25,238 nt of DNA from a virus (Duplodnaviria > Caudoviricetes): positions 1 through 25,238 of IMG/VR virus record IMGVR_UViG_3300042566_000093. One strand, given 5' to 3'. A model generated the notes under the pieces. It was not told where the DNA came from. It saw nothing but the letters and a program-made list of their open reading frames with translations, and ran no database searches. Every line of letters starts with the position of its first letter. The first letter of the stretch is position 1. A program made the position numbers and the translations under genes. Below, piece by piece: positions 2,871 to 25,237 of this stretch.

Positions 2871-2884
2871 TCGGTACCTATTAG
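2871..2884 (+). promoter_or_regulatory. Candidate phage RNAP promoter TCGGTACCTATTAG
   Basis: Intergenic; the motif recurs at 20831-20844 and 23644-23656, each oriented with the downstream gene. Confidence 0.55.
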
Positions 2885-6941: not shown

Positions 6942-6946
6942 ATAAT

Positions 6947-7366
6947 ATGAAAATAATTCTACTAACCCCCGACCAAACAGTTCAACATTGGTCTGTTATC
7001 TCAGGATATCTGAGTAAAGTAATTGAGCATAGCCAAGGAGAATCATCACTTACAGACTATCTTAAGAAGATCCTCAATGAATATGTTCAATGTTGGGCGG
7101 TAGTAGATGATGGTTTAAATATTATTGGTGTTGGTCTCACTCAATACTTACAATACTCTCAACACAAAACACTTCACATCATTGCTTTTTCTGGTAGTGA
7201 CTTTGAAGAACAATCTAAGGTGTTCCCTACAGTGGAACAATTTGCCCGTGATTCTGGCTGTAAAGCTATTGAACAATGGGGTCGTCCAGGATGGGCAAAG
7301 GTACTACCAAAGTATGTATCTGGATTTAAAGAAGCTTACGTAGTAATGCGAAAGGATTTAGAATGA
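6947..7366 (+). CDS. GNAT-fold virion assembly protein (T7 gp13 / P22 gp14-like); ATG at 6947 preferred
   Basis: LHIIAFSG…EQFARDSGCKAIEQWGRPGWAKVL; typical position just before the ejection genes. Confidence 0.65.
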   Translation: MKIILLTPDQTVQHWSVISGYLSKVIEHSQGESSLTDYLKKILNEYVQCWAVVDDGLNIIGVGLTQYLQYSQHKTLHIIAFSGSDFEEQSKVFPTVEQFARDSGCKAIEQWGRPGWAKVLPKYVSGFKEAYVVMRKDLE

Positions 7367-8244: not shown

Positions 8245-9242
8245 TGGCTGGATCACAAGGTATGCCAACTTCAGTGGCTCCTCAACAAGGACAACCACAA
8301 TCTACCCCCTCGGTGTTTAATATGGCAAATCAGCCAAGCGCTGATATGATGAGTCCTGCTGTTATGCCCACTCAACCCTCTATGGGCGGTGGTAAAGGTG
8401 CTGGACCAATGCAACCCCAAAAGACTGCTATGGGTACTCCTATTGTTTATGGTAATGTTTATTCTAATTCGAATCAACCATTTAATCCATCACCAAACTC
8501 ACCCTCAATAACTAATCCAACAGTAACTGAAAAACCATATGATGTACTTCAAGACCCAAGCTTTTATATGGCTGCTGACGGTACAACAAGTGTTCCTGGT
8601 TATGCTATGGGTACTACTGGTGTAGATGATCCATGGGATTGGTCTAATAAAGCCCCAGTAGCTCCATTAGCTGTGACTATTAAACCTTCTGAAGCAGTAA
8701 TACCACAAGTTGTTCCTGATCAAACAGAACAACAACTAGGTCAGATGGCTATGGGTATGGGTACTAATGCAGCCGCAAAGGGTATTGATGCCGCATACAA
8801 AGCTTATAATGCACCATTGACAACTCAAGCAGTAGGTTCTATGGGAACTACCGCTAGTGGCGCTCCAGTGGCATTAACTAACATAGGAGCTTTGTCTGCA
8901 CCTGCCGCATCTTCTATGCCAACAGCTATAGGCGCTATGTCAACCCCTATGAGTGGTGCTCTTCTTCCTGCTAGCGGTTTGGGAAGTGTCGCTGGTGCTG
9001 GAACAGGTATTGCCGCAGGATCTGCTGCACCTATTGGTGCTACTATTGGTTCAAGCCTAGGCACTGGTCTTGCAGCTGCTGAAGGTGCTACATTAGCTGG
9101 AGCTGGAACTGCAGCCGCTGGAACTGGTGCTGCTGGGCTCGGCAGTGCTTTAGGTGCTGGTGGTAGTGCTGCTTTGGCGGCTCTTGGCCCTGTGGGAGCT
9201 ACTATCGCAGCAGGGTTAGTTTTAAAGAAAATACTTGGATAA
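8244..9242 (+). CDS. Internal virion (ejection) protein with P/Q-rich N-terminus and A/G-rich hydrophobic C-terminus
   Basis: TAATG overlap, SD GGAGG; C-terminal GxxxG-rich membrane-insertion-like segment. Confidence 0.6.
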   Translation: MAGSQGMPTSVAPQQGQPQSTPSVFNMANQPSADMMSPAVMPTQPSMGGGKGAGPMQPQKTAMGTPIVYGNVYSNSNQPFNPSPNSPSITNPTVTEKPYDVLQDPSFYMAADGTTSVPGYAMGTTGVDDPWDWSNKAPVAPLAVTIKPSEAVIPQVVPDQTEQQLGQMAMGMGTNAAAKGIDAAYKAYNAPLTTQAVGSMGTTASGAPVALTNIGALSAPAASSMPTAIGAMSTPMSGALLPASGLGSVAGAGTGIAAGSAAPIGATIGSSLGTGLAAAEGATLAGAGTAAAGTGAAGLGSALGAGGSAALAALGPVGATIAAGLVLKKILG

Positions 9243-11753: not shown

Positions 11754-11767
11754 ATAAAGGAAAATAA

Positions 11768-14700
11768 ATGGATGGATATTTAGACAACCTAAGAAAGATA
11801 ATATCAAGGAAATCAGATTTACCAGGAGGTATCTCATTAACGGATGCTGATACCGTGGTAACCCCTTCGGGGGAATCCATCCGTCTTCAAGGCATTAGTG
11901 CAAGAGAGACTGCTAAACTTCCTGATGATTTAAGTAAAAGTAAAGGCGCTCAAGCGGGTGCCTATACCCAAAGTAGATTGATGGAAGACGTTATTCGTGA
12001 GGGTAACTTTACTACACCAGTACTTACACAAGATAAATCTTATAAACGTACTCTTGGTGATTTAGTAGACCCTAGTGGAAGACGTCTTACTAACAAAGCA
12101 TTAGAAATGGGTATTGTTGATCCAACAGCCGATACAACTAGAGATCAATACAACTCTATGTACATGGGTAATCTTGACCGTGCTCAACGTAGAGTAGATA
12201 AGCAACCTACAATAGCTGACAGTTTACTTTTTGAGCTTAACAAAGAGCGTAACCCTAATGGGTTTATGATGTCTAAGCTTCAAACAGATACTGCTGGTAT
12301 GTATGGTCAAGCAAAAGAACAAGGTCTTGACGAGTATTTTTCTGGTCCATCTATTATCAGAAAAGGTGAAGATCGGTATGGTAAAGCTATTTCTAATTTA
12401 AGCAGTGGTTGGGATCAAGGTAAACTTCAAGCCGCTAAAAGCGTGTATGGTATGTTTGATCTTATTGCGGATAAAACAGGTAGCGAATCATTTAAAAACT
12501 TTGCACAATCAGGTATTAATGAAAATACCTCTTTGTTAAGAGACATACCTGAATTAAGAAGTGCAGAGGCATTTAATGATAAAGGTGAGTGGAAATTAGA
12601 TACACTAGGTAAGTTCTTTGATTGGACTGTAGGTAGTGCAGCTGCTTCTGCTCCTCAAATGTTGACTAGTATTGTTGCTGTTATGGCTTCACCAGCAACC
12701 TATGGTGCTTCTTTATCAATTCCATTTAGTATGTACACAGGTCAGGTATACAACGATCAGAAGAATAAGAATGCAACTGCCGCTGTTGCTGCTGGTTTTA
12801 CTATGACAGTGCTTGATAAGTTATCATTGCCATTTATTCTTGGTAAAGGTAAAGACATTACTAAACAGGCTACTCAAGATTTAGTATTGAGAGAGCTACA
12901 AAAGACAATGACTAAAGAAGCGGCTGAAGAGTTGCTACGTAAGTCTATGACTGAGTCTGTTAAGGAAGTTAGTACTGCTTTCAAAACAATTTCTGGTGGT
13001 ACGCTTAATAAGATAAAAGGTATTGGAGGAGCTACTGCTTCTGGTGCTTTGGTTGAGAGTGGTGTAGAAACACTACAAGAATTAGCTGGTTATTTTGGTG
13101 AGCAAGGTAGTTTTGATTTACCTTCTTCACCAGAAGAAATGACAAAGCTAAAATCTAGATTGGCAAATGCGGCTGTTGGTGGTGCTGTATTAGGTGGTGG
13201 ATTGTCTGGTGGTCTTAAGACTTATTCAGTATTAACTGCACCAAGCGATGTTGTTCCTAGATCATCAACTGATGTTGAGTTTAGAGAAAAATATATTAAT
13301 GATATTAATGAACAACGTGTAGCTTCAGGAGATACTCCTATTGTTACAATGCCTTCTACTACAGACGTTATTGATAAGACATTAGAATTACAAGAGAAAA
13401 ATCCTATTGAAACATCGTTAAATGCTTTAGCTTCTGCTGAGACTGCTAAAAGACAGACTGAAGGTGTTTATGCTAAAACAATGTCTGCTATAAAAGATAA
13501 AGGTATTAGTGGTTTATTTGGTAAATTTTCTAACATTATAACTAGTGATACTAAACATAAGAGCATTTACTCAGCTACATTATCTACATTGTTAGGTAGT
13601 TCTACTGCTGTTAATGGGGCTTCTATTGAAAACCACCAAGCTATTTTAGAGTCAAACATCTTTAAAAACTTTGGTAACATTGAAAATTTTATTTCTGCTT
13701 TTGGTGGTGTATCTGCTACAGAAGCTTCTCGTATTATATCTAACCCTACTGTTGTTAATGCAATATCAGAGTTAGCTCGTATTAAAAGAGATTTATTTGC
13801 TACTTCTACCAGAGATATCGCTGATAAGATGGATATTGATTACGGTAACTTTGGTAATTTTAAAGATTCTATTATTGATTATGCTGATAGAATAAGTAAT
13901 TTAACTAAAGCATACAATCAAGCTACAGGTAAAGATTTGTCTGTTAGACAATTCTTAGAGTTTAAACCATTAGATAAAACAATTGTGTCAAAGAACTCTG
14001 GTCAGTTTGTCAGAGACTTACAACAACACTTAGGTATGAACTATGCAGATGCAACTGAATTAACTAATGCAATACTAGATAACAAACAAGTTAATAGTTT
14101 TGAGGATTCACTTGATGAATTGCTTAATGGTAATGCAGAAAAGATTAAAGATAAGCAAGGGTTAGAAGCTAAACTAGCTCAACCCGGAGTCAAAAGTTTC
14201 TTTAATCAGTATATGTCTCATAACATTATAGATAACGCTTATTCATTAGCCGCATCGGGTGCTGCTTTTAATACTAATAAAGAGTTAATTGGTAAAGATG
14301 GTTCTAAGCTTGCCGCATTAGTTCAGCAAATGAAAGACAATGGTGACATTGATGATGTACAAGCTAGTTTTATAGCTAAAGAAATTCAAGATGTGTTAGC
14401 AATGCGTAATGGTGAATTCAAAGCCATTACTAATCCTTATTTAAAAGGTGCATTGAACACTCTTAATTTCTTATCTACTATTACTGCACTACCATTAGCC
14501 GCTGTTAGTTCTACAGTAGAGTTTGCTCAGATATATCGTAACCTAAATAGACCACAAGCCGCTAAAGCTACATTGGCTTTACTTAAAAGTACAGGCAGTG
14601 AAATAGGTGCTTTGTACAGAGAGATTGGTAACAAGCTTACTGATAGAGTTCTTATTAAAAATGCTAAGATTAGAACAGACTTGTCTGAAGCAGGATACCT

Positions 14701-15571
14701 AAGAGAAGGTGGTGTTGGTCATCGTAATGACATTCTAACGTCATATTATTCTAAATGGACTGACGGGTTCTTTAAGTTAACTGGTTTAACTTCTGTAACA
14801 GCTATTACCCGTAATGCTCGATTAGCTATTGCAGCTGATGCTATACAAAATTGGTTGAATGTTGTTTCTGAAGGTACAGGTACTGAACAAGAAATAGCAG
14901 ATGCTAAAGACCATTTAAGACGTATTAACGTTGACTATGAATACATGATGGCTATTAATGCTGATACTAAATCTACAGAAAAATATGTTATAAACAATTT
15001 ACAACAGGCTACATATAACTTTGTTAATGAAGCAGTTATTATACCTACTATTCTTAATAGACCTAAGTTTTATAGTGATCCTTATCTAAAACTGTTTACT
15101 CAATTTACGGGTTATACATCAGCATTCACAGCAAATATTCTCCCAAGATTAGTAACTGATATCCGTAAGTCAGGATCAGATGATCAAAAGAATACTGCAG
15201 CTGTTATTGCTATGATGCTTGCTTTGGCTATGCTTTCTTTGTATATTAAAGATATGATTAAGTATGGTGAACATCCACCTGAGTGGGTCAAAGAAAATAA
15301 AGAGTTTTTAAGAGTTATTAATGCAATGGGTATCTTAGGTTCAGGACAACGGATCTTTGATCAGATATTCCCATTGATAGAAGACAACAGAAAGAAATCT
15401 ATCACAGATAAGATTGCCGAACAATCCGCACAGCTCTCATACATCAAGAAGGTTGAAAGAGCTTTAGAGGCACCAGAAGGTAAACGGATTGAACAGGGTG
15501 CGAAGCTGCTTCCCATAGTTGGAACAAGTCCCGCTTTCGCTAAATACTTACAGAAAGAGCTAGGAGAATAA
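11768..15571 (+). CDS. Large internal virion protein with an N-terminal thermonuclease (SNase)-like domain
   Basis: SD AAGGA; DADT / IRLQGISARET / DKSYKRTLG motifs; Gly/Ala-rich hydrophobic helices; size and position of a T7 gp16-like ejection protein. Confidence 0.6.
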   Translation: MDGYLDNLRKIISRKSDLPGGISLTDADTVVTPSGESIRLQGISARETAKLPDDLSKSKGAQAGAYTQSRLMEDVIREGNFTTPVLTQDKSYKRTLGDLVDPSGRRLTNKALEMGIVDPTADTTRDQYNSMYMGNLDRAQRRVDKQPTIADSLLFELNKERNPNGFMMSKLQTDTAGMYGQAKEQGLDEYFSGPSIIRKGEDRYGKAISNLSSGWDQGKLQAAKSVYGMFDLIADKTGSESFKNFAQSGINENTSLLRDIPELRSAEAFNDKGEWKLDTLGKFFDWTVGSAAASAPQMLTSIVAVMASPATYGASLSIPFSMYTGQVYNDQKNKNATAAVAAGFTMTVLDKLSLPFILGKGKDITKQATQDLVLRELQKTMTKEAAEELLRKSMTESVKEVSTAFKTISGGTLNKIKGIGGATASGALVESGVETLQELAGYFGEQGSFDLPSSPEEMTKLKSRLANAAVGGAVLGGGLSGGLKTYSVLTAPSDVVPRSSTDVEFREKYINDINEQRVASGDTPIVTMPSTTDVIDKTLELQEKNPIETSLNALASAETAKRQTEGVYAKTMSAIKDKGISGLFGKFSNIITSDTKHKSIYSATLSTLLGSSTAVNGASIENHQAILESNIFKNFGNIENFISAFGGVSATEASRIISNPTVVNAISELARIKRDLFATSTRDIADKMDIDYGNFGNFKDSIIDYADRISNLTKAYNQATGKDLSVRQFLEFKPLDKTIVSKNSGQFVRDLQQHLGMNYADATELTNAILDNKQVNSFEDSLDELLNGNAEKIKDKQGLEAKLAQPGVKSFFNQYMSHNIIDNAYSLAASGAAFNTNKELIGKDGSKLAALVQQMKDNGDIDDVQASFIAKEIQDVLAMRNGEFKAITNPYLKGALNTLNFLSTITALPLAAVSSTVEFAQIYRNLNRPQAAKATLALLKSTGSEIGALYREIGNKLTDRVLIKNAKIRTDLSEAGYLREGGVGHRNDILTSYYSKWTDGFFKLTGLTSVTAITRNARLAIAADAIQNWLNVVSEGTGTEQEIADAKDHLRRINVDYEYMMAINADTKSTEKYVINNLQQATYNFVNEAVIIPTILNRPKFYSDPYLKLFTQFTGYTSAFTANILPRLVTDIRKSGSDDQKNTAAVIAMMLALAMLSLYIKDMIKYGEHPPEWVKENKEFLRVINAMGILGSGQRIFDQIFPLIEDNRKKSITDKIAEQSAQLSYIKKVERALEAPEGKRIEQGAKLLPIVGTSPAFAKYLQKELGE

Positions 15572-18500
15572 ATGGCAGTTAATATTAACACAAGCAAAAA
15601 CGTACCTACAATACCACGTATTGCAGATGATTTGCTTCAACAACAGATCAACGAAGCTAATGCTCGTATGGCGGCTCAACCCCCTCGGCAAGAAGCAATA
15701 CCTAACCCTTCAGCAATCTTTGGTGAAGAGGAAGAGTTTGTTCTTCCATATAAAAAGTCTCCATATGTTATTCCAAGAAGACTTTCTGGTCTACCTCCTG
15801 ATGCAAAGTTACTTGCAGGTACAGATGTTCGTATGCCTTCAGAACAAGAGGCTATACCTACGGACCAAGAGATTATACCTACAGAGCAATTATCTGAGGA
15901 TGTCCAACCTGAAATGATAGAAGAAACACCACAAGAAGATGGTGGGTTTGGTATGGATAGCTTTGCTATTGAAAGTACTGATCAAGACTATTACAGTAAA
16001 CTTCAAGAAGAACGTAACAGGCAAATGGAAGTAAGGAAAATCCTTGATCCTTCTCGTTTTGAAAATGAAAATGATATCAGAACTGCTTACGGTGAAGGGG
16101 CAGTTAAAGCTACAGAAGCAGGTGCTATTATTCGTACTGCTATGAATATTACTAATGGTCTTAATGATCTTGATGTAGGCTTATATAAAGAGGGTACAAC
16201 ATCTAATGCACAGCTTAACGGTCTTACTTATCTTAAACAGGGTACTGGATTAGATACTAAACAGATTGGTAATGCCGCTACTACTTCTTTTATTTTGTAT
16301 GCTCCTATGTTATCAGGTGCAGCATCTCAAAAAGACGGTGAGATCATGTCTGCTGAGGACAATGCTGATATTGATAGCTTAGACCAACTGATAATGGATG
16401 ACGGTGATGGTGCCTTAGATAAGGTAGCCGTTAATGGTGGTCTTAAACGTGACATGGTCCAAAAGGGTTTAGGTCGTTTGTTTAAAAAGCTTTCAAAAAG
16501 TGTCGGTGATACTTATTGGGGTAATACAGAACGTATTAATCAAAACATTTCTAATGAGGCTGCTGGTGCAACCATTGTTCAAGCTTTAGTTGATAAGGGT
16601 TATTTGGTTGAAGATGTTAACCCAGATGGTGTTGAGATTCTTAGACTAAGTCCAGGCTTAGGTGCTGACTTAAGATACAAGAGTAAAGGTATGCAACGTA
16701 GTGTTACTGGTGCATTGTCAGGTAAAGCTCAAAAGGCTCCTCCTACTGAAACAGGTGCTTATCAAGGTGCATTACAAGATGTCCGTGAAATGGATAAAAA
16801 GAAACAAGAGTACACTGTTACACAACAAATGGCTGAAGCCAAAGGTGCTGTAGCTAAAGTACCACTCTTTATTTCACCCGTTAAAGCTTACTTTGCAGCT
16901 CTGTTTAATGAAGCTATTCTTGGTCATGTTAAAAACCCAATGAACCCAGCACAATTAGATGTTATGGGATTGTTAAAGGTATCCGAAGAAGATATTCAAG
17001 ATGCTTCTGCTAATGGAAACAAAACATCTGCAGAAATTATTGATCAAAAAGTAAGCAATCTTCAAACTGAATTAGGTGACATGGCAGCACACGTAGCCTA
17101 TGGTGGTCCACAGTTCTCTACTTATTGGGAAGACTATGCTACCCATCGTATGTATCAAGATGCAACTGACTTTAACCCACAACGTAATAAGTGGACTCGT
17201 GCATTAACTGTAGGTAAGTCTTCTCCTATTATGCTTAATAGTAACTTCCATAATACAGGTGTTAACAAAGCAACTGCTGAAGGATTCTTTAGCAGGATTG
17301 CAGGTAAAGCTCGAAATGGTAATTTTACTTTGTCAGCAGATGAAAAAGAATTAAGTTTCCTTACAACACTTGGTCGTGTACTTGATTCAAGTAGGTCTGT
17401 TGGTATGTCATCTGAATCTATATTGTTGCCTGACCTGTTACAAACAGTAACACCAATGTTTATTGCTGAAGCAGCTGCAAAAGGTAGATTGTTACGTAGT
17501 ATTGTACCTAATAACACTCGTGAAGTTGTTAATGCTCTTGGTAAACCAGAAGGTCTTATTGATAAGCTTACTCCTGCTCAGAAAGGTGCTTTAGATAACT
17601 TCCTTAAAGAAGCAGATAGAGACGACTGGGGTTATAAGCTTCAGGCGTATCTTGATGCAGCTAACTATTTAGATGCAAAAATGAATGGTACACCTTTCAC
17701 ACCACGAGTTACTGTAGCTCTTGATATGAACTCTGCTGGTCGTTCGTTCTTAGCCGCTGACGTTGGTAACATGGATATCTTAAGTCGTGTTGGATTAATA
17801 TGGGATAAGTTTGTTGATAGAGTAGACGATTTCTTTACTGATACATTACCTAATGAAAAGGGTGATCCACGATACTACTTTACAACTGTAGCTTTAGATA
17901 CAGGTATCTCTGCTGCTTTTGGTGATGCTAAACAAGAGAAGATTGATAAATTTAAAATGTTGCTTGCTAAATATGGTGGTGCAGGAGTTGCTGGTAATAA
18001 GCAGTTCAACAAAGACTTTTCAAAGAAAGTCTTGATGACCACTGACTATGGTAAGCCAGCTAACTTTCACATTGCAGAAGCTAAAGCCTTTTTAAAGAGT
18101 CACCCTGAATTTAGAGATGAAGCAGTAAAGTTTTATAATGGTGATGTAGATGCTTTAGCCAAAGACATCAATGAGATTTATAAAGCAACTTTAAAACAAA
18201 CAACAGACGCTTGGCAGTATGTGTTGCCTAAGAAGATGGTTAAGTTCTTACAGATGTTTGGTCGAGTACCTAAACCAATTGGTTACTACAATGAAAACAT
18301 TTCTATTGGTAGATTTGGTACTGAGCCTACAGGTAATATTGTTCAAATCAAAGGTGCAGAAGGTAAACGCAGACGTATTATGGAGACTATGAGGATGTTT
18401 GATCCTTTAGCTCCTGCTAAGGCTAAAGGTTTAAGGCTAGACGATGGTTCATTGTTCATACCTGAAGAAGGTTCTGGAGCAGTTAACCAAGTTGGTCCTA

Positions 18501-19123
18501 CATTCGGTCAATATCGTGAGTCAATTATTGTTGCTGAGACAGCAAGGTTACTTAATGGTAATAAAACACCAGCGAATTCTAACTTTATTATTCCTGTATT
18601 TGATAACTTTATTGTTGACTCTATGAGCTACCCATTTGTTCATTACGTAGCTAATAATATTGTAGCCCCTAATGTGTTTAGTTGGAATATGGCTAAGGGT
18701 TTTTCTCTTGATTTCCGTAAACAACTTAGAGAAGCTTTACCTGAGATGATGAGTTCTAATGAGATTATTGTTGGTCCAGGATCACCTTACAAAGGTATCT
18801 TTACTACTATTGATCGTGAATATAAGTGGTTAAAAGATAAACAGCCTAATGAATTAGCAGAATATCAAAAGACTTTAAAGCAATTTCTTGAAAGTAAATC
18901 TTCTGGTTATATACCTCCAGGTCCTAATAGACCCGAGTCTACACGTTTAACATCTCAACAAGCAAGAGCTTTAGTAAAAGCTATTAGTGATTTTTATAAC
19001 TTTAATGATAAGCTCCAAGGCGTTGATGCTTGGGATAATTTAAAATATAAAGGTATGCGTGATTCATTCTTAAAAGAACTTGTATCACGAGGTAAAAAAG
19101 GATTAATTTACTTCTTTACTTGA
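15572..19123 (+). CDS. Divergent single-subunit (T7/N4-type) DNA-directed RNA polymerase, putatively virion-encapsidated
   Basis: DYATHRMY…FNPQ; motif A ALDMNSAG (D718); motif B KDFSKKVLMTTDYG (K818, Y826); GPTFGQYRE; motif C PVFDNF (D1011); C-terminal YFFT. Confidence 0.8.
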   Translation: MAVNINTSKNVPTIPRIADDLLQQQINEANARMAAQPPRQEAIPNPSAIFGEEEEFVLPYKKSPYVIPRRLSGLPPDAKLLAGTDVRMPSEQEAIPTDQEIIPTEQLSEDVQPEMIEETPQEDGGFGMDSFAIESTDQDYYSKLQEERNRQMEVRKILDPSRFENENDIRTAYGEGAVKATEAGAIIRTAMNITNGLNDLDVGLYKEGTTSNAQLNGLTYLKQGTGLDTKQIGNAATTSFILYAPMLSGAASQKDGEIMSAEDNADIDSLDQLIMDDGDGALDKVAVNGGLKRDMVQKGLGRLFKKLSKSVGDTYWGNTERINQNISNEAAGATIVQALVDKGYLVEDVNPDGVEILRLSPGLGADLRYKSKGMQRSVTGALSGKAQKAPPTETGAYQGALQDVREMDKKKQEYTVTQQMAEAKGAVAKVPLFISPVKAYFAALFNEAILGHVKNPMNPAQLDVMGLLKVSEEDIQDASANGNKTSAEIIDQKVSNLQTELGDMAAHVAYGGPQFSTYWEDYATHRMYQDATDFNPQRNKWTRALTVGKSSPIMLNSNFHNTGVNKATAEGFFSRIAGKARNGNFTLSADEKELSFLTTLGRVLDSSRSVGMSSESILLPDLLQTVTPMFIAEAAAKGRLLRSIVPNNTREVVNALGKPEGLIDKLTPAQKGALDNFLKEADRDDWGYKLQAYLDAANYLDAKMNGTPFTPRVTVALDMNSAGRSFLAADVGNMDILSRVGLIWDKFVDRVDDFFTDTLPNEKGDPRYYFTTVALDTGISAAFGDAKQEKIDKFKMLLAKYGGAGVAGNKQFNKDFSKKVLMTTDYGKPANFHIAEAKAFLKSHPEFRDEAVKFYNGDVDALAKDINEIYKATLKQTTDAWQYVLPKKMVKFLQMFGRVPKPIGYYNENISIGRFGTEPTGNIVQIKGAEGKRRRIMETMRMFDPLAPAKAKGLRLDDGSLFIPEEGSGAVNQVGPTFGQYRESIIVAETARLLNGNKTPANSNFIIPVFDNFIVDSMSYPFVHYVANNIVAPNVFSWNMAKGFSLDFRKQLREALPEMMSSNEIIVGPGSPYKGIFTTIDREYKWLKDKQPNELAEYQKTLKQFLESKSSGYIPPGPNRPESTRLTSQQARALVKAISDFYNFNDKLQGVDAWDNLKYKGMRDSFLKELVSRGKKGLIYFFT

Positions 19124-19124
19124 C

Positions 19125-19178
19125 AAATAAAAAACCCCTACTAGGATAATTCCTAATAGGGGTTATTTTTTTTTTTTT
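19125..19178. terminator. Bidirectional intrinsic terminator between the convergent arms
   Basis: Stem aacccctactagga / tcctaataggggtt (one mismatch), loop taat, A-tract on the left and 13-T tract on the right. Confidence 0.9.
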
Positions 19179-19458
19179 ATTTCAATAGTTGATTATACAT
19201 GTCTAATGCTTGCTTACGATTATTACTAGCAAGCTCTTGAGCTTCTGTCTTGGTGTAAGGCATACCCGTTTTATCGTTAAGAACATCAGTTAAACCTGTT
19301 GAACTTTGTTTATATACTTCATTAATTACATAAGGACCAAGGTCTTTAGTATAAAGAACATTGTCAGGAATATTAATACCTACATCCCGCATATCAATTT
19401 GGAAGTCATGGTCATCATAATCATGACCTCTTAAGGCTTGTACGTTATAACTTTTCAT
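19177..19458 (-). CDS. Hypothetical protein
   Basis: Start overlaps the Dps stop; ends at the terminator. Confidence 0.7.
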   Translation of the reverse strand: MKSYNVQALRGHDYDDHDFQIDMRDVGINIPDNVLYTKDLGPYVINEVYKQSSTGLTDVLNDKTGMPYTKTEAQELASNNRKQALDMYNQLLK

Positions 19459-19931
19459 TTAAAACTCTTTCCAAGTGTTGCTTTGACTTTCCAGTTAAGC
19501 TTGGACAAGTCTTTAATATAGTCACCAACAAGTGTAGCTAAGCCACCATAGCATTGTATATCAGCTTCATCATACAGTTTTTGAGCATGATCAACTAAAT
19601 CATCAAAGTCTTGATTTAGCCATGTAAACATTTCTTTACTTGGCTTTCTAGCATTATCACACTCTGCAATATCAGTCATACTAAGAACTTCTTTAAGAGA
19701 GCATGGTACTCCCTTGTCCATCTGACGGATCTGTTCACCAAGCATATCATGTTGTGCCCACAAGAAGTCATAGATCTCTTCTAAAAGAGCATGATCTTGA
19801 GCAAACATAGGGCCTTCCACATTGAAGTGATACCCATGAGACTTGTAGTATGTCACAAAGTTATCAGCATAAAGCTGTGTAAGCATTGTAATCAAATTAT
19901 TACTTTTGGGTTGAGGTGGTGTCATTGCCAT
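19455..19931 (-). CDS. dps: Dps / ferritin-like protein
   Basis: HGYHFNVEGPMFAQDHALLEEIY…DMLGEQIRQ matches the Dps ferroxidase pattern (HWNVxG..F..LH..FE..Y…D..AERI). Confidence 0.85.
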   Translation of the reverse strand: MAMTPPQPKSNNLITMLTQLYADNFVTYYKSHGYHFNVEGPMFAQDHALLEEIYDFLWAQHDMLGEQIRQMDKGVPCSLKEVLSMTDIAECDNARKPSKEMFTWLNQDFDDLVDHAQKLYDEADIQCYGGLATLVGDYIKDLSKLNWKVKATLGKSFK

Positions 19932-20103
19932 ATTTATTTCCTTTAATTAGTTTCTTTTCAATATCTGACTGATATGCTCTTACTTTATCATTCCAGATAT
20001 GTTCCTGTAGAGTCTCAGGGTTCTTTTTAATACCAAATATAGCATCCCAGTTGTCTCTTACCAGCTGTTCATTCTCTCTACGTCTACTACTACCCTTACC
20101 CAT
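19900..20103 (-). CDS. Small phage hypothetical protein (MGKGSSRR…WDAIFG); start revised to 20103
   Basis: ATG at 20103 with AAGG upstream; short overlap with the preceding gene's stop. Confidence 0.6.
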   Translation of the reverse strand: MGKGSSRRRENEQLVRDNWDAIFGIKKNPETLQEHIWNDKVRAYQSDIEKKLIKGNKYGNDTTSTQK

Positions 20104-20296
20104 AATAGCCTTTACTAAGATTAAACTCGTAGGACTTAACGTTTTCACCTAGGATATACTTACCCCATACTTCAGGTAATTTTAAGCCTTGTAGCTCAAT
20201 ATCGTACCAATAGGCTCTGTCGTCATATAAGGTTTCTTCAGGAGTTTTATAATAATCAGGACACAAGTCCTCAATATCGTGTTTATTAATCATCAT
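20096..20296 (-). CDS. Hypothetical protein
   Basis: SD GAGGA; packed within the operon. Confidence 0.6.
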   Translation of the reverse strand: MMINKHDIEDLCPDYYKTPEETLYDDRAYWYDIELQGLKLPEVWGKYILGENVKSYEFNLSKGYYG

Positions 20297-20618
20297 CTTC
20301 CTCGCTTAATAATGCGGCTAGACTAGTTGGTTTATTATTTTTCTTTAATTCAAAATAATAGTCTGCATTATTATCAATAAAGTCTTTAAATAAAGTTAAT
20401 TCTTTAATTAGTAATTCCAATTTATCATACTTTTCTTTTAAAGATTTCTTATCATATATGTGCATATCAAGCTCTACCTTACGATAGCAGTCAGATATAC
20501 AGATAGTACCGTCCATAGAGTATGGGCTGATATCTACGCTTGCTTCTATTAACGCTGTACCCTTGCTTTTATTAAGGAATTTCCTTGAATAATATCTGGG
20601 GTGTTTTTGTTTAGCCAT
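20286..20618 (-). CDS. Hypothetical phage protein
   Basis: SD AAGGA upstream; SRKFLNK…ISDCYRKVELD. Confidence 0.7.
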   Translation of the reverse strand: MAKQKHPRYYSRKFLNKSKGTALIEASVDISPYSMDGTICISDCYRKVELDMHIYDKKSLKEKYDKLELLIKELTLFKDFIDNNADYYFELKKNNKPTSLAALLSEEDDD

Positions 20619-20636
20619 GTTGTGTCCTTGATTAGA

Positions 20637-20710
20637 GAGTGGTAGTGGGATTCGAACACCACATTCCGAAGCTTATACATCCTCGATTTTACCAGTTAAA
20701 ATATACCACT
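20637..20710 (-). tRNA. Degenerate tRNA-like element, anticodon undetermined (9-nt loop ATGTATAAG)
   Basis: Perfect acceptor stem AGTGGTA/TACCACT; D arm TTTT-AACTGGT-AAAA; anticodon stem CGAGG/CTTCG; T loop TTCGAAT with a bulged T-stem; no CCA. Confidence 0.65.
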
Positions 20711-20752
20711 GTCATTATATCTGTGACTCCGTAACGGTAGAGTCGGACCGAG

Positions 20753-20826
20753 GGTTGCGGGGAAGGGAGTCGCACCCCTGACCTATGGATTATGAGTCCA
20801 TCGCTCTTCTACTGAGCTACCCCGCT
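20753..20826 (-). tRNA. tRNA with CAT anticodon (Met, fMet or Ile2; identity ambiguous)
   Basis: AGCGGGG TA GCTC AGTAGAA GAGC G ATGGA CTCATAA TCCAT AGGTC AGGGG TGCGACT CCCTT CCCCGCA A CC folds as a cloverleaf. Confidence 0.85.
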
Positions 20827-20830
20827 TTAT

Positions 20831-20844
20831 CTATTAGGTACCTG
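20831..20844 (-). promoter_or_regulatory. Candidate phage RNAP promoter CAGGTACCTAATAG
   Basis: Overlaps the end of the thioredoxin gene and ends 4 nt before the tRNA 5' end; same motif as 2871 and 23644. Confidence 0.5.
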
Positions 20845-21088
20845 CTAAGAAAGGTCTTACCTTATTAGCGTCAAAACCTACTGATGTACGTAATACCTGA
20901 TCATTACTATCTACAATAATCATTGTAGGCACTGAACGAATACCGTAGTATGATACTGAATCTTTATTATCTTCGATAGGCATATTAATTAATTCAATCT
21001 CAGGGTATTCAGGTAAAGCTTCTTTAAGAACTTTGTCTAGTTGCTTACATGGTTGGCACCATGCTGCAGAGAATTTAAGTAGTTTCAT
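20834..21088 (-). CDS. trxA: Thioredoxin
   Basis: FSAAWCQPCK active site; IRSVPT cis-Pro motif. Confidence 0.92.
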   Translation of the reverse strand: MKLLKFSAAWCQPCKQLDKVLKEALPEYPEIELINMPIEDNKDSVSYYGIRSVPTMIIVDSNDQVLRTSVGFDANKVRPFLAGT

Positions 21089-21366
21089 TAGTTACCTTTA
21101 AACAGTTCTTCTTTAAGCAGATATCCTTCAAGAGACCAGAGCTGGTCAATAGCATTTTCAAACGAATACTTTTCTCCAAGGGCTTGGTTGTACCTTGACT
21201 TATCCACACAGGCACTTGTGCCAATGACTACGTAACCGTTCTTCATGAACACTTGGCAGATAGTTGTTGTGGTTTCTGGTAGCAGAGTATACACTGACTT
21301 CTCAATCTTAGACATGATATGGTCAATAGTTACTGATGTACGTGGTTTTTCTTTGGTATCGTTCAT
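21088..21366 (-). CDS. N4 Gp49 / Sf6 gp66 family protein (possible cyclic-nucleotide sponge)
   Basis: TICQVFMKNGYVVIGTSACVD…YNQALGEKYS..NAIDQLWSLEGYLL is the family signature. Confidence 0.8.
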   Translation of the reverse strand: MNDTKEKPRTSVTIDHIMSKIEKSVYTLLPETTTTICQVFMKNGYVVIGTSACVDKSRYNQALGEKYSFENAIDQLWSLEGYLLKEELFKGN

Positions 21367-21737
21367 TGTTTACTTTCTAAATATTTAACTGCCTTGTTTA
21401 AACCTTCAAGAGTATCCCCAAAAATACCAAGACCTTTGTTACATTGACCACAGAGAATACCTCTTATTTTACCTGTAATATGATCATGGTCTACTACAGC
21501 ACTTTGTTTAGTTGCTTTGCCATCTAATTCTACTGGTGTATTACAAATAGCACAGCAACCATCTTGATCTTCAATAAGCCTATCTCTTTCTGGAGAAGTA
21601 ATATTGTATTTAGATCTTAGGTGTCTGCAGGTATTACATTCTTTGTAGCGAGCACTATATTCTTTTCCTGTTCTATTAGGGTTATTAATAGAATAAGCTG
21701 TAGTTTCGTTATGACATCCTATATTTTTGCATTTCAT
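21363..21737 (-). CDS. Endonuclease VII-like His-Me endonuclease (possible free-standing homing endonuclease)
   Basis: QDGCCAIC…VVDHDHITGKIRGILCGQCNKGLG; additional N-terminal Cys pairs. Confidence 0.88.
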   Translation of the reverse strand: MKCKNIGCHNETTAYSINNPNRTGKEYSARYKECNTCRHLRSKYNITSPERDRLIEDQDGCCAICNTPVELDGKATKQSAVVDHDHITGKIRGILCGQCNKGLGIFGDTLEGLNKAVKYLESKQ

Positions 21738-23615
21738 TTAAATCTCGCATCCTCCTGCGGTGCAACTTAAAGTCTGCACACCTTCCACATTGTCACGGTC
21801 TTCATAAAACAAATCCCAGTTAATAACAGGTAATGTATCTTTGAGGCGATGATAAACTGACAAATCAATATTTTCATATGGAGCTTGTCGATATGTTCCA
21901 CCGTCATCAGGGAGGAAAGAAATACCTGTGCATTCATTGAAGTGTTCATATACCCATGCTCCTACTTCCATCCACTCGTGGTCTTTAACTGAGATAGTTA
22001 CTGAGGGCTTATGCTCACACCAGTAACGCTGATATGTCAACCAGATATTGAGGTGTTCAATAGCTGTAAGATCTTCACGAGTAAATCCTGGTGAGTGTTG
22101 TGGAAAGCTAAACACAGTAGTCTGATCAGGCTTCATAACGCAGTCTTCGTTAGGGATACCTTGAGAGATCAAGAACTGAGTCAATGGATCTTTCTTATCC
22201 TGACGAATACGTCTGATATAATACTTAGCATGTCCAGCATGGATACCGCTGGATGTCTGTGTAAGTTGTGACACAGTACCTTCAGGCTTAACACAGGTAA
22301 TAGCGGCTGACTCAGGTACACCCAAGATAGCTGCCCACTCTTTGTTAGTCTCACGAGCTACATCACGAAGTTCTTCAAGAAGATCTCTTAGTGGATAGTG
22401 AGTACTGCCACGAAGATAAGGGTTGTCAAGGATACCAGTCATAGACACACCCAAGAGACGTTCTTGGTTGGTGTTAGTACGCCATACATCACGAAGGTAA
22501 GGGAAGTCAGTTAGTGTAGACTGCATAGTACCCATGATAGTAGCTAATCGAACTTTAGTCTTGAGTGACTCAACAGTATCTTCAGGAGACACTACTATAG
22601 TAGACAAGTTACAGAACTGATATGGCTTCAGGATAATCTCTGAGCAAGGGTTAGTACCATAATCAACCTTAGGATCTCTGCGACCCCACTTAGCGGCTTG
22701 TACTTGAGAAGCTTCACGGTTAAAGATACCACGTTCACCTGAGTGACTGTTGTAAATGTCCAACCATTCCTTCATGAACTCACCGATAGAAGGTTTGCTG
22801 TTGTATACTGCTGAGTTGTTAGCCAATGCACGTTCACCGTGGTTTTCCCACCATGCACCTGCCTTAGCTGTGGCATGATCATAGTCACCTAAGTCACCAA
22901 GGGAAATCATAGCTGACCTACGTACACCACCTACCACAACTACTTCACCGATCTTACACATGATATCATGAGCTTCAATAGACTTAAGCTTACGACCTTG
23001 AGCAGCTTTAAACTTATCTACTGTATACTGGAACAAGTCAATCAGTGGACCCGGACCCGAGGCACGACCACCAAATGTTTTAAGTGGCGCACCTGCTGGA
23101 CGAACGAGCGACACATCCCATTTAGGAATAATACCCTCATACAACATTCCAATAAGCATTTTATAAGCTTCACACCAACCTTCTTTAGAGTCAGCTACTA
23201 CAATAGTGTAGCCAGTAGCCTCAACCATTGTAGGAACAACGGGTAATTGGTTAACATAAGCTTGCTCACAAGAGAATCCTACTCCTGTACCACACAAGAG
23301 GATATACATAGCTTCATCAAAGCAACGTTGATTATCAACAGGAAGGTAGCTGCAGTTATAGGCTGCAACGTGTGTTCGTCTAAGGGCTTCACCAGCGGTC
23401 ATAATAGATCGCATAGAGGGAAGCACTGCTAAGTTATTAATGCTGTTTCCTAGGAGACCCCAGATAGAGTCATCCTTATTTACTTTATCTTTAAGTTGTT
23501 CTTGAAAGAAAGATACCCAACGGGCAGATGTTTCATCCCAATTCTCCCTACGTTTTTCTTCAGGTAGGTAACGGGCATAACGGGACTTGGCGATAAGTTG
23601 TTGATAAGAGTTCAT
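21738..23615 (-). CDS. nrdJ: Class II (adenosylcobalamin-dependent) ribonucleotide reductase, RTPR type
   Basis: YNCSY, GTGVGFS, VVGGVRRSA, GTNPCSEI, TCVKPEGTVS, C-terminal CTAGGCEI; no R2 subunit gene adjacent. Confidence 0.93.
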   Translation of the reverse strand: MNSYQQLIAKSRYARYLPEEKRRENWDETSARWVSFFQEQLKDKVNKDDSIWGLLGNSINNLAVLPSMRSIMTAGEALRRTHVAAYNCSYLPVDNQRCFDEAMYILLCGTGVGFSCEQAYVNQLPVVPTMVEATGYTIVVADSKEGWCEAYKMLIGMLYEGIIPKWDVSLVRPAGAPLKTFGGRASGPGPLIDLFQYTVDKFKAAQGRKLKSIEAHDIMCKIGEVVVVGGVRRSAMISLGDLGDYDHATAKAGAWWENHGERALANNSAVYNSKPSIGEFMKEWLDIYNSHSGERGIFNREASQVQAAKWGRRDPKVDYGTNPCSEIILKPYQFCNLSTIVVSPEDTVESLKTKVRLATIMGTMQSTLTDFPYLRDVWRTNTNQERLLGVSMTGILDNPYLRGSTHYPLRDLLEELRDVARETNKEWAAILGVPESAAITCVKPEGTVSQLTQTSSGIHAGHAKYYIRRIRQDKKDPLTQFLISQGIPNEDCVMKPDQTTVFSFPQHSPGFTREDLTAIEHLNIWLTYQRYWCEHKPSVTISVKDHEWMEVGAWVYEHFNECTGISFLPDDGGTYRQAPYENIDLSVYHRLKDTLPVINWDLFYEDRDNVEGVQTLSCTAGGCEI

Positions 23616-23643
23616 GAGTTCCTTGTTGTTAATTGTTGTCTGG

Positions 23644-23656
23644 TATTAGGTACCGA
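23644..23656 (-). promoter_or_regulatory. Candidate phage RNAP promoter TCGGTACCTAATA upstream of nrdJ
   Basis: Intergenic; 12/13 identical to the copy at 2871-2883. Confidence 0.55.
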
Positions 23657-23663
23657 CTCACTG

Positions 23664-23686
23664 TATTACTATTAACCATAGTAATA
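23664..23686. other. AT-rich perfect inverted repeat (9-bp stem, 5-nt loop)
   Basis: tattactat-taacc-atagtaata, between the RNAP stop and the promoter-like motif. Confidence 0.5.
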
Positions 23687-23707
23687 AAAGTATTAATAAT
23701 GATAGTG

Positions 23708-25237
23708 TCAGCAAAAGAAATACTCCGAATTAGTTACTTCAGAAAGGTTTAAGCTACCTAGTTCTGGTTGGTTAAAAGTAAAAGTATCCTTATTATTCAT
23801 AAGAGTATCCTGTATGATATCAAAGAAGTTTTCTACATCATACTGTGCAATGAAGGTCATCTTAGTTACTTCTTGAAGGAAATCAACTTCATCCGCATGT
23901 GTACTAAAGCTATCATGGACTGCTCCAAAAGAGCCGTTAAAGCTGACGATAGTATTTGCCATGTGAGCAGCATCATATGAGTGAACAACGTTAGGGCTGA
24001 TACCAGAAGCAAAGGAACGTCTGCAAGGAACACGTTCACCAGTTTCTTTGTTGAGTACGTCAACTTTAATAACGTGCATGACTCGTCCGTCTTTATTTCC
24101 TTGGATACCTTTGATAGTTCCTCTTTGTTTCCGTTCATGCTGTAAGTAAGCCTTGTATACCACTGGGAACCCTGATGGGGTTGTCCACGAAAGTTGATTT
24201 CTTCCTGAGTTAAGTTCATGTTCTGCAATCTTCTGTAAATACTTGGTTGTCTTAAGTGGTCCTGCACAGACGGTGTTAATAGCCTTGATTAGGTTACCTG
24301 CTAATATATCACACTCATTTTCAGTAATGTTATATTTAACAGTATAACCTTCTACGTGACAGTCATCGTACATATTCTTTGCGATACGAAGTTTACCTGC
24401 ACTATAAGCACGAGTCATTGAGCCTCGTTTAGCTATACCCTTACGAATATGTTTCATAGGCATATCTTTAGCTTCAAAGTACTCAGGCATAATGTTGATA
24501 AGTTCTTTGGCTACTGCTACGTAAAAGTCTTTTTGGATAGGTGTAGGAACAAGTGATACTAGTGTACCAGCTTGTTTGTCCTTAGACATAGCCGCTAAGT
24601 GTTGCCAACCGTTATTACTACCATCGATAGGTATAGGTAGACCAGACATAAAGGGTTTACCCTCCATGACAGATCTTTTATATCCTAACAGCTCATTACA
24701 ACAGGCTAAGAAGCTGTAGGCTTTCTCAGCGTCAGGATGAATATGTTTAGTACGGGCAGTCTGGTAGATAAACTCTATGTTGTTATCTACCCATGCAACT
24801 CGATCTTCCAATGTCATCTTATCTACAGATATAGTGTCAAGACCTTCTTCAGTTAAGTAAGCCTTGTAGTCTGTGGTAAAGTAGCTTGGGATGTTACCAA
24901 TAATAAATGATTTATTAAAGCAAGCTGCTGTATGTACCTTGATCCAGAATAAACCACGTTCAGTAACCTTCTTCTTATTAGCAAACAAGAACAGGCTACG
25001 AGCCAAGTCACTACCTTGGAACTCTAAGAATGATTCTGCATAGTACACTCGACCACGGTAGTCACAAGAGACTTCCTGATAGAATGTTCTGTTGCCAATC
25101 ATCTCAGCCTTCTTAAGTACCTGAGTGTACTCAAAGTACTTACTCATCATACGCTGTAGCTTGGGATCTTTCTTACCAAGGAATTTAGTCTTGTCTGTAT
25201 GGAACAAGTTCTTAGGTAAGTCTAGGTTTTCATGGTG
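23708..25237 (-). CDS. T7-like single-subunit DNA-directed RNA polymerase (N-terminus beyond the window)
   Basis: CDYRGRVY, PIDGSNNGWQH, KRGSMTRAY, ISPNVVHSYDA, VHDSF, C-terminal SEYFFC; frame stays open to the window edge. Confidence 0.95.
   Translation of the reverse strand, partial: HHENLDLPKNLFHTDKTKFLGKKDPKLQRMMSKYFEYTQVLKKAEMIGNRTFYQEVSCDYRGRVYYAESFLEFQGSDLARSLFLFANKKKVTERGLFWIKVHTAACFNKSFIIGNIPSYFTTDYKAYLTEEGLDTISVDKMTLEDRVAWVDNNIEFIYQTARTKHIHPDAEKAYSFLACCNELLGYKRSVMEGKPFMSGLPIPIDGSNNGWQHLAAMSKDKQAGTLVSLVPTPIQKDFYVAVAKELINIMPEYFEAKDMPMKHIRKGIAKRGSMTRAYSAGKLRIAKNMYDDCHVEGYTVKYNITENECDILAGNLIKAINTVCAGPLKTTKYLQKIAEHELNSGRNQLSWTTPSGFPVVYKAYLQHERKQRGTIKGIQGNKDGRVMHVIKVDVLNKETGERVPCRRSFASGISPNVVHSYDAAHMANTIVSFNGSFGAVHDSFSTHADEVDFLQEVTKMTFIAQYDVENFFDIIQDTLMNNKDTFTFNQPELGSLNLSEVTNSEYFFC

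Follow-up and report, generated by a model that had tools for sequence, protein, structure and literature searches.

An uncultured short-tailed phage, represented here by a 25,238-nucleotide stretch of DNA (the window), encodes two RNA polymerases (RNAPs) that probably act in succession: a packaged enzyme of the T7 family would start transcription, a soluble RNAP would take over, and the product of a small partner gene would silence the newly made virion enzyme. By sequence, the phage is a member of the CRP-7-like group of unclassified Caudoviricetes, with genomes of about 60 kb, two opposed gene blocks and two RNAPs, one of virion type. Its portal, terminase, capsid, DNA polymerase, primase-helicase and RNAP have homologues in CRP-7, as does the gene order; the head and replication genes, which lie outside the window, were compared through the relative G001, whose soluble RNAP is 91% identical to that of the window. 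The two polymerase ORFs point towards each other across a gap of 4,585 nt, and the minus-strand RNAP gene is followed by nrdJ (21738..23615, minus strand), encoding a class II (B12-dependent) ribonucleotide reductase as assigned with Pfam and PHROG. An earlier note on this DNA had drawn attention to the two polymerases; the cassette exchange and the partner gene reported below are new.

The probable virion polymerase of 1183 residues

The plus-strand gene at 15572..19123 encodes a stand-alone, single-subunit RNAP of 1183 aa, cysteine-free and ending in YFFT. Searches of Pfam, PHROG and PDB sequences, the last with both the single query and an 18-row profile, returned no match, nor did tblastn among 50,697 phage records. 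When virion RNAPs were assigned to types by identity to three references chosen by the analyst, the type C enzyme likewise matched no phage record, and CRP-7 was the sole record matched by type B.

An AlphaFold model of the protein (pLDDT 84.9, pTM 0.85) matched mitochondrial, T7 and N4 mini-vRNAP structures in Foldseek (E about 1e-11 to 1e-13, prob 1.00). VIA aligned it to yeast mtRNAP (Z 24.9, rmsd 6.4, 724 aligned), T7 RNAP (8dh5_E: Z 24.8, rmsd 8.9, 648 aligned; 1s76_D: Z 23.7, rmsd 3.9, 549 aligned) and N4 (Z 19.6, rmsd 6.7, 743 aligned), structural scores that do not favour N4 over the T7 or mitochondrial enzymes. In the model, residues 1-134 are disordered and residues 135-1183 adopt the T7-family fold, aligning to T7 residues 23-883, up to the last T7 residue, with the N-terminal domain, thumb, palm and fingers of the right hand all present and a predicted beta-hairpin (914-944) at the position of the specificity loop. 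Catalytic roles were assigned to R526 (DxxGR-like), D718 (motif A), K818 and Y826 (motif B) and D1011 (motif C), and the motifs line up with the T7 and N4 blocks. R526, D718, G723, Y826 and D1011 are kept in all 92 full-length representatives (1,010-1,438 aa), at identities down to about 16%, and position 818 is K in 88 and R in four. Its predicted fold and invariant catalytic residues identify the protein as a T7-family RNA polymerase.

The enzyme is about one third the size of N4 vRNAP, and its being a fragment of such a protein was checked and ruled out: the ORF is complete with a stop codon, a terminator-like site follows, and no relative exceeds 1,438 aa among the 124 profile hits that represent the family (124 clusters at 50% identity). 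The site, an inverted repeat between A and T runs (19125..19175), resembles a bidirectional terminator, separates the two gene blocks and shows 98% identity to its counterpart in relatives whose polymerase is of another type.

It is likely that the polymerase is packaged in the particle and injected with the DNA, as judged from a cysteine-free run of genes and its place at the end of the ejection operon. Five consecutive plus-strand ORFs, of which it is the last, contain no Cys in 3,908 aa, and six minus-strand ORFs contain 32 in 1,578 aa. The other four encode two virion proteins of 293 aa (weakly similar to the 'DNA ejection protein' phrog_4287, E 4e-4) and 332 aa (7363..9242, plus strand), a likely ejection protein of 833 aa (9252..11753, plus strand), and a 1267-aa virion protein (11768..15571, plus strand; phrog_6958, E 4.5e-19), likewise probably ejected, which co-varies with polymerase type. 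N4 vRNAP also lacks Cys throughout its 3,500 aa. It is very improbable that the protein is instead another soluble polymerase, absent from the virion, or a structural relic that has lost catalysis: such a reading would suit a protein with no sequence-family match, whose packaging and activity are predictions, but the catalytic residues are invariant over 92 divergent relatives, 81 of these are Cys-free (16 Cys in 112,165 residues, against 8-17 in each soluble RNAP), and the place at the end of the ejection operon is fixed.

In profile comparisons, the virion RNAP family is nearer to N4-type virion enzymes than to the resident soluble polymerase. HHalign, with templates that differ in depth, gave E 7e-16 to Schitoviridae vRNAP cores, 3e-8 to T7-like enzymes and 5e-5 to the resident soluble clade, which itself matched T7-like enzymes at E 2e-71. 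Types D and E matched N4-type cores at about 1e-18 and 1e-15, and a motif B K-x-P is common to types C, D and E and the Schitoviridae. A motif tree of 128 ungapped columns and 43 chosen rows, from which mitochondrial RNAPs and N4 RNAPII were left out, set the T7-like and soluble enzymes apart from both virion groups (support 100/99), and a direct BLASTP comparison gave no significant match between the 1183-aa protein and a full-length soluble homologue (E 1.4). The earlier note had recognized the plus-strand gene as a convergent RNAP, which holds, and had taken it for a paralogue that may have arisen by duplication of the lineage's own soluble RNAP, an origin which these scores and the tree do not support. 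That origin is quite unlikely, although a mini+soluble clade survives an AU test on the 128 columns (p 0.08) and the two window proteins do have in common a Lys at the T7 R627 position and a YFF-x end. Neither trait is kept across the family, and both were dropped as evidence of paralogy: the position (Lys814) is K in 52 of 92 and D in 26 of 92 representatives, and the YFF-x end is confined to the window's own type, with other endings in types B, C and D.

The soluble polymerase and a proposed order of transcription

The minus-strand gene beside nrdJ was confirmed as a canonical T7-type RNAP: its C-terminal 509 aa, ending in YFFC and cut by the contig end (23708->25237, minus strand), match PF00940 (E 1.5e-56) and phrog_414 (E 3.8e-96). 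Beyond the window, the enzyme is a single chain of 730-774 aa (about 733) in 71 of 79 relative loci, the other eight being cut by contig ends, unlike the split N4 enzyme; the single ORF and the T7-like profile rule out an N4-like RNAPII. The pairing recurs in related contigs: of 31 soluble-RNAP loci whose 10-kb flank is complete, 30 have a convergent virion RNAP homologue 2.9-5.6 kb away (L075 is the exception), and seven more, shorter loci add to these. Both enzymes are also present in 22/22 loci of a distant lineage.

Three T7-type promoter-like sites with the core GGTACCTAATA/G occur in the window (0.12 expected): one on the plus strand at 2873..2884 (one mismatch), 19 nt before the tail/ejection operon, and two on the minus strand, at 20831..20842 before the genes for tRNA-Met, a Dps-like protein and the partner, and at 23643..23654 (one mismatch) before nrdJ. 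Each of 10 relatives has 2-9 sites, the motif is the same in types A, B and C, and a variant is confined to one soluble-RNAP clade; the CRP-7 genome was unmatched. No early promoter for the virion RNAP was identified, and a reading of the left genome ends revealed no hairpin early promoter, a Schitoviridae trait. A conserved left-end element tracks backbone more than polymerase type, which is awkward for a swapped promoter-specific enzyme; a pattern search for it in 16 further records, which were mostly incomplete, matched three. As scored by eye, GTGR stands ahead of a C-run at the far end of 7/7 type C and 0/6 type A/B genomes. Hairpins ahead of the early genes form long stems that resemble RNase III sites more than promoters and are comparable to the RNase III-like hairpins of the T7 early region.

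In the mechanism proposed here, the virion RNAP would enter the cell behind the channel proteins of 833 and 1267 aa, with its disordered residues 1-134 as a tether. It would transcribe the early arm from the first-entering end and thereby pull DNA in, like N4 vRNAP. The gene for the soluble RNAP lies beyond about 18-20 kb of early and replication genes; this enzyme would take over second and read its own promoters before nrdJ, the tRNA/Dps/partner genes, and the tail and terminase genes. The partner, produced while new virion RNAP is being made, would keep the cognate enzyme silent, acting in trans as the C-terminal domain (CTD) of N4 vRNAP acts in cis; the 1183-aa enzyme has no such domain. 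The succession of an early virion enzyme and a middle/late soluble one, suggested in the earlier note, is consistent with gene order and the T7-type promoter set.

An alternative, judged unlikely, is that the injected RNAP serves mainly as a DNA-entry motor over the first few hundred bases, an adenine-free leader, and that host RNAP makes the early mRNA. Such a role would agree with the swapping of the polymerase together with channel proteins and not early genes, with a left-end element common to several types, and with the T7-like RNase III hairpins before early genes. Against it, the enzyme keeps the full initiation fold, including the N-terminal domain and predicted specificity hairpin, and no T7-like cluster of near-consensus sigma-70 promoters was found at the early (left) end, although this last observation carries little weight.

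Cassette exchange and the partner gene

By DNA identity, the virion RNAP is shown to be exchanged as a ~9.5-kb ejection cassette between near-identical backbones. The cassette (9950..19458) begins in the 833-aa gene, near codon 234, and comprises the 3′ part of that gene, the 1267-aa gene and the genes for the virion RNAP and its partner. The DNA ceases to match G002 (type B) and G003 at about 9950 and, the terminator aside, matches G002 again from about 19444. A Dps/ferritin-like gene (19455..19931, minus strand) abuts the partner gene and stays behind when the cassette moves. The soluble RNAPs are 92-98% identical, yet the virion RNAPs of the same phages are 15-39% identical. Assembly chimeras are an unlikely source of these swaps, as judged on contigs rather than reads, since many separate contigs are involved, the left boundary is the same in G002 and G003, and the frames are intact. 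The swap of such diverged polymerases suggests strong selection on injected proteins, via host defence or phage competition; that an essential polymerase should be replaced by 15%-identical versions among otherwise near-identical phages was unexpected.

The partner gene (19177..19458, minus strand) encodes a 93-aa helical protein of no known family, a candidate cognate inhibitor or chaperone. A gene of ~90 aa adjoins the virion RNAP gene, and matches it in type, in 39/39 cases; it also adjoins it in 22/22 loci of the distant lineage, and in both orientations across lineages. Partner distances correlate with those of the virion RNAP (Mantel rho 0.75) more than with those of the soluble RNAP (0.22) or the adjacent Dps (0.14) over 35 loci, which are not fully independent (L080/L081 and L087/L089 are identical pairs). 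Linkage alone could yield co-segregation of partner and virion RNAP. A search with 32 members found no Pfam family (best E 0.03), and its homologues have neither a Pfam domain nor a name beyond 'hypothetical', apart from one automatic LacI label among 120 listed. No match was found in the Atlas or by fold (Foldseek best E 0.4; VIA best Z 5.4), and sequence and fold searches revealed no likeness to known inhibitors.

A tentative reading, with somewhat less than an even chance, is that the partner is made alongside new virion RNAP and binds its cognate type, providing in trans an autoinhibition like that of the N4 CTD. It is also possible, if rather doubtful, that it is a packaging chaperone, adaptor or activator; a cognate chaperone would be expected to co-vary just as well, and in the distant lineage the partner lies on the virion operon strand right after the polymerase in 21/22 loci. 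In the window's lineage, however, the partner belongs to the opposite, non-virion operon, and most type B and type C copies of it contain Cys, both of which speak against its ejection. The lack of the N4 autoinhibitory domain in the virion RNAP also counts against this alternative. More speculatively, and with a low probability, the diverged virion-RNAP/ejection cassettes of this widespread podovirus group may circulate as a polymorphic polymerase-immunity system, each with its cognate inhibitor and possibly a matching far-end promoter; a cell already infected would be closed to polymerases arriving from phages of the same type and open to those of other types. Cognate polymerase/partner pairs are possible orthogonal expression tools.

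Relation to known two-polymerase phages

The phage lies outside both Autographiviridae and Schitoviridae, in keeping with the earlier description of its transcription as distinct from T7 and N4. A single RNAP and one coding strand are characteristic of Autographiviridae. In common with T7- and phiKMV-like members, the phage has a one-chain T7-type RNAP and repeated short phage promoters, and its RNAP gene comes after those for replication, an order also seen in phiKMV-like genomes (RSB1, Minorna records); it departs from them in its two convergent blocks and two RNAPs.

The nearest profile relative is coliphage N4 gp50 (mini-vRNAP 998-2103, PDB 2PO4/3C3L), likewise a Cys-free T7-family enzyme, whose gene closes the ejection operon, converges on the replication block and is accompanied by a second phage RNAP. 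N4 vRNAP is a giant of 3,500 aa, compared with 1,010-1,438 aa here, and its ~1000-aa N-terminal domain and autoinhibitory CTD are absent here; its second RNAP is the two-subunit RNAPII gp15/gp16 in place of one T7-like chain, and a dedicated small partner gene and deep allelic exchange set the present system apart. N4 positions 1-50,000, which do not include head genes beyond 50 kb, were matched by one of 81 G001 ORFs, the RNAP. The available text of PMC13434306 describes the N4 CTD as autoinhibitory and counts two structurally characterised virion-packaged phage RNAPs, those of N4 and crassvirus phi14:2. The family offers a natural catalytic unit of ~1,050 residues, without giant flanking domains, outside Schitoviridae. 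If the polymerase-immunity reading is true, its members would also be the most compact stand-alone virion RNAPs in nature, form a sister lineage to that of N4 and make up an orthogonal, switchable polymerase set.

Pairing a virion RNAP with a one-chain RNAP is not in itself new, which qualifies the contrast with N4. A virion RNAP accompanied by a second RNAP has been published for Alteromonas phage R22Y (PMC11705849), and both this phage and vB_AmeP_PT11-V19 (OP751378) combine a shortened vRNAP ending the virion block with a one-chain 670-aa RNAP. The V19 vRNAP (2,082 aa) falls outside the virion RNAP family described here (hhalign E 0.009, against 1e-7 to N4 cores), its second RNAP is nearest N4 gp16, unlike the T7-like soluble RNAP here, and the whole V19 genome was matched by one of 81 G001 ORFs, the RNAP.

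In the literature covered, in which subscription papers were thinly represented and the supplements of PMC6918029 were outside scope, no description was found of gp33 of the cultured Roseobacter phage CRP-7, the virion RNAP family, the exchange or the partner. CRP-7 (MK613349; PMC6918029, available text), which has a Planktomarina host, belongs to the same group, with portal, terminase and capsid 51%, 60% and 49% identical to those of G001 and 24 of 81 G001 ORFs in common; its nrdJ is placed elsewhere and its promoter motif differs. Its gp30 is the soluble RNAP, gp33 a type B virion RNAP (E 2e-46) and gp32 the partner; the record lists gp33 and gp32 as 'hypothetical', and in the available text gp30 alone is labelled and discussed as an RNAP, so that this described relative does not already have both polymerases annotated. 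CRP-7 thus carries the family unannotated in a cultured phage, which makes packaging, early transcription and the role of the partner directly testable.

Two convergent RNA polymerases as a group trait

The window is part of a podovirus contig carrying tail, ejection and nucleotide-metabolism genes, and the two convergent RNA polymerase (RNAP) ORFs reported in the earlier note as lying about 4.6 kb apart, the minus-strand one beside nrdJ, are both present, with a spacing of 4,585 nt. The minus-strand ORF (23708->25237), adjacent to nrdJ and cut by the contig end, encodes the last 509 aa of a T7-type enzyme (PF00940, E 1.5e-56), referred to here as the soluble RNAP; the plus-strand ORF (15572-19123) encodes an 1183-aa protein, the putative virion RNAP. 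The intervening region contains a terminator-like inverted repeat (19125-19175), a 93-aa ORF (19177-19458, minus strand), a Dps-like gene, nrdJ, tRNA-Met, small ORFs, and genes for thioredoxin and endonuclease VII. A second tRNA-like stretch, visible downstream of tRNA-Met (20620-20750, minus strand), was not called by ARAGORN. The Dps/ferritin-like gene (19455-19931, minus strand) varies between backbones, with 39% identity in the related locus L014 despite 98% flanks. An N4 gp49-like gene and the endonuclease VII gene (21088-21737, minus strand), missing from most close relatives, are recent insertions after nrdJ, and the tail-fibre gene (4429-6540, plus strand), with ITA-D-K-type decapeptide repeats, is replaced in relatives by unrelated fibres.

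In 71 of the 79 loci fetched from the best 80 of 130 matches, the soluble RNAP is a single ORF of 730-774 aa, the other eight being cut by contig ends; the minus-strand enzyme is thus one chain, not split as in N4. Of the 31 loci whose flank spans a full 10 kb, 30 have a convergent virion-RNAP homologue 2.9-5.6 kb away, as do seven shorter loci. The remaining full-flank locus, L075, gave no virion-RNAP profile match at E 1e-5; its weak tblastn trace may reflect a further polymerase type. Both enzymes also occur in 22/22 loci of type D, a distant lineage whose soluble RNAP is 37-43% identical to that of relative G001. The pair, whose co-occurrence in related contigs the earlier note had proposed to check, is therefore a group trait. 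Near-complete relatives (58-64 kb) share the order portal, terminase, early genes, DNA polymerase, exonuclease, primase-helicase, RNAP and, in most cases, nrdJ, followed by the opposed virion block. The sole cultured match to the soluble RNAP is gp30 (36% identical) of Roseobacter phage CRP-7, in which gp33 (1235 aa, zero Cys, annotated "hypothetical") occupies the place of the virion RNAP and matches the family profile at E 2e-46; the available text of the CRP-7 paper names only ORF30 as an RNAP (PMC6918029).

A compact T7-family polymerase, likely virion-borne

The 1183-aa protein has no match in Pfam, PHROG, PDB sequences or phage records. A profile built from 18 close relatives recovered 124 clusters at 50% identity; among 125 sequences examined, 92 reached 1,000 aa and were kept, and R526, D718, G723, Y826 and D1011 are invariant in all 92, with position 818 being K in 88 and R in four. 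Alignment beside T7 and N4 sequences identifies these residues as the DxxGR arginine and motifs A, B and C. An AlphaFold model (60-row alignment; pLDDT 84.9, pTM 0.85; residues 1-134 disordered) matched single-subunit RNAPs in every Foldseek match listed against PDB, and its top matches among viral models were Vibrio-phage proteins and T7-like RNAPs. ESM Atlas returned PF00940 clusters (score 0.96), and VIA aligned residues 135-1183 onto T7 23-883, with Z scores of 24.9 for yeast mtRNAP, 24.8 for T7 and 19.6 for N4 mini-vRNAP. The protein is thus a T7-family polymerase. Since its chain terminates at T7's end, it lacks an N4-type C-terminal domain; the alternative that it is a fragment of an N4 vRNAP is further contradicted by the longest of the 124 clusters, at only 1,438 aa.

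The gene closes a run of five ORFs (293, 332, 833, 1267 and 1183 aa) that contain no Cys at all, compared to 2.0% Cys in six minus-strand ORFs. Two of these five match virion/ejection PHROG families, 81 of 92 relatives of the polymerase are Cys-free (16 Cys per 112,165 residues overall), and N4 vRNAP likewise has none in 3,500 residues. From these sequence features we infer that the enzyme is likely carried in the virion; absence of Cys has already been used to propose a vRNAP elsewhere (PMC10747016). A conserved 138-147-aa gene at the head of the ejection genes (6923-7366, plus strand; CRP-7 counterpart gp38, 34%) does contain Cys, in contrast to the five genes downstream.

The earlier suggestion that the virion RNAP is a duplicate of the soluble one fared poorly. 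In HHalign comparisons, whose template depths differ between sets, the virion RNAP family matched ten Schitoviridae vRNAP cores best (E 7e-16), ahead of seven T7-like RNAPs (3e-8) and nine resident soluble RNAPs (5e-5), the soluble set itself matching T7-like RNAPs at 2e-71. By type, D and E are closest to N4 cores; A (the window's type), B and C are singly weak against every outgroup. A motif tree (128 columns) has three groups, supported at 97/99 for compact enzymes, 95/90 for Schitoviridae vRNAPs and 100/99 for T7-like together with soluble RNAPs. The grouping of compact with soluble enzymes was not rejected by an AU test (p 0.08), long branches meet in the tree, and structure scores show no preference for N4. 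The best reading is that compact virion RNAPs are a sister lineage of N4-type vRNAPs, recent duplication being unlikely; the tree is unrooted and gives no direction to the proposed "intermediate toward N4".

Cassette exchange and the partner gene

Virion RNAPs of the soluble-RNAP loci form three deep types, each with its motifs intact, and are far more divergent than the soluble RNAPs beside them: soluble versus virion identities are 98% versus 39% (window/L014), 92% versus 15% (window/L017), 98% versus 16% (L064/L065) and 96% versus 16% (L041/L060). The soluble-RNAP tree (38 rows) requires 13 type changes, the minimum being 2 and the shuffled mean 15.5. Between the window and relative G002 (type B), DNA identity stops at about 9,950, within the 833-aa gene, and is regained only in the 54-nt terminator (98%) and then from 19,444 onward; G003 has its left break at the same position. 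The exchanged unit, about 9.5 kb, comprises channel proteins, polymerase and partner, the 93-aa ORF.

In 38/38 loci and the window, the end of the partner ORF (79-101 aa) and the polymerase stop are some 40-60 nt apart. The partner's type equals the polymerase type in 39/39 (A 14, B 6 including CRP-7 gp32, C 19), a count that linkage alone can produce and that includes some near-copies; no mismatched pair was found among the 39, although the conserved terminator between both genes offers a crossover site. Across 35 loci, the partner correlated most strongly with the virion RNAP (Mantel rho 0.75), and far less with the soluble RNAP (0.22) or the abutting Dps gene (0.14). In type D, a partner is present in 22/22 loci, in 21 on the polymerase strand right after its stop; L165 carries two copies on the opposite strand. 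Both arrangements are expected to give expression at the stage when new virion RNAP is made. The predicted fold is confident (pLDDT 96), with no match to anything known in Pfam, homologue annotations, Atlas, or Foldseek and VIA comparisons. N4 vRNAP is damped by its own C-terminal domain, with modest inhibition in trans (PMC13434306), a domain that the compact enzyme lacks. The partner may, at slightly under an even chance, be a cognate inhibitor of the virion RNAP; the main rival is that it acts as its chaperone or activator.

Promoters, the early arm and known systems

Three sites in the window (0.12 expected) carry a T7-type promoter core, GGTACCTAATA/G: upstream of nrdJ, of the tRNA/Dps/93-aa gene group and of the tail-ejection operon. 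Each of ten relatives has 2-9 such sites, with terminase and some replication-arm genes also among the genes they precede; CRP-7 has no match. Because the core is identical across virion-RNAP types A, B and C and altered only in one soluble-RNAP clade (G008 and G009, GTCCCCTAATA/G), it would belong to the soluble RNAP, and the two variants offer a natural comparison through which promoter specificity could be mapped.

Because the soluble RNAP gene is reached only after about 18-20 kb of the early arm, transcription must begin with another polymerase. The early end showed no cluster of near-consensus sigma-70 sites, which is weak evidence since this consensus may not be that of the host; no promoter for the virion RNAP was identified at the early ends inspected. 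A conserved element opens the arm, together with a leader almost adenine-free on the mRNA-like strand, its longest A-free run being 44-242 nt (about 27 expected) in 10/10 genomes with the region; the leader is missing from N4 1-50,000 and from Alteromonas phage V19. Outside the window, it spans 110-850 nt at early ends of G001, G002 and G004-G010, and CRP-7 57301-58101, and contains RBS-preceded ORFs made of A-free codons, with 0-3 TT steps on the template strand. Candidate causes are avoidance of adenine-based restriction, of A-specific RNases or of UV thymine dimers on the template. Immediately beyond the terminase promoter (G001:4934, G002 and others), a conserved left-end element reads TGTGTG...AAAGAATCA and continues with a pair of C-runs spaced by about 20 nt; directly before the last C-run, GTGR stands in 7/7 type C and 0/6 type A/B genomes. 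The element is possibly a terminus or a type-specific early promoter. Long imperfect hairpins upstream of early genes (G009 7905-7965 and 8190-8262; G001 5225-5295; -24 to -27 kcal/mol) appear to resemble RNase III sites.

Thus, the finding is real: CRP-7-like podoviruses possess a compact stand-alone RNAP family, likely virion-borne and a variant of the N4 kind, that is exchanged as a cassette together with a cognate small gene and is accessible to test in cultured CRP-7. No description of this family, CRP-7 gp33, the exchange or the partner was found in the literature searched. In N4, vRNAP acts first, then gp15/gp16 (motifs summarised in PMC4496689). Alteromonas phages vB_AmeP_PT11-V19 (OP751378) and R22Y pair a 2,082-aa vRNAP with a second RNAP (PMC11705849), which in V19 is a single 670-aa chain, giving the broad layout a printed precedent. 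The V19 vRNAP (OP751378.1 32493-38741) has its RNAP motifs within the first ~720 residues, followed by a long C-terminal part, and has no N4-type NTD, forming a second size class between the compact family and N4. The distinction from N4 drawn in the earlier note therefore needs qualifying, but V19's vRNAP lies outside the compact family, and the genomes have only the RNAP in common.
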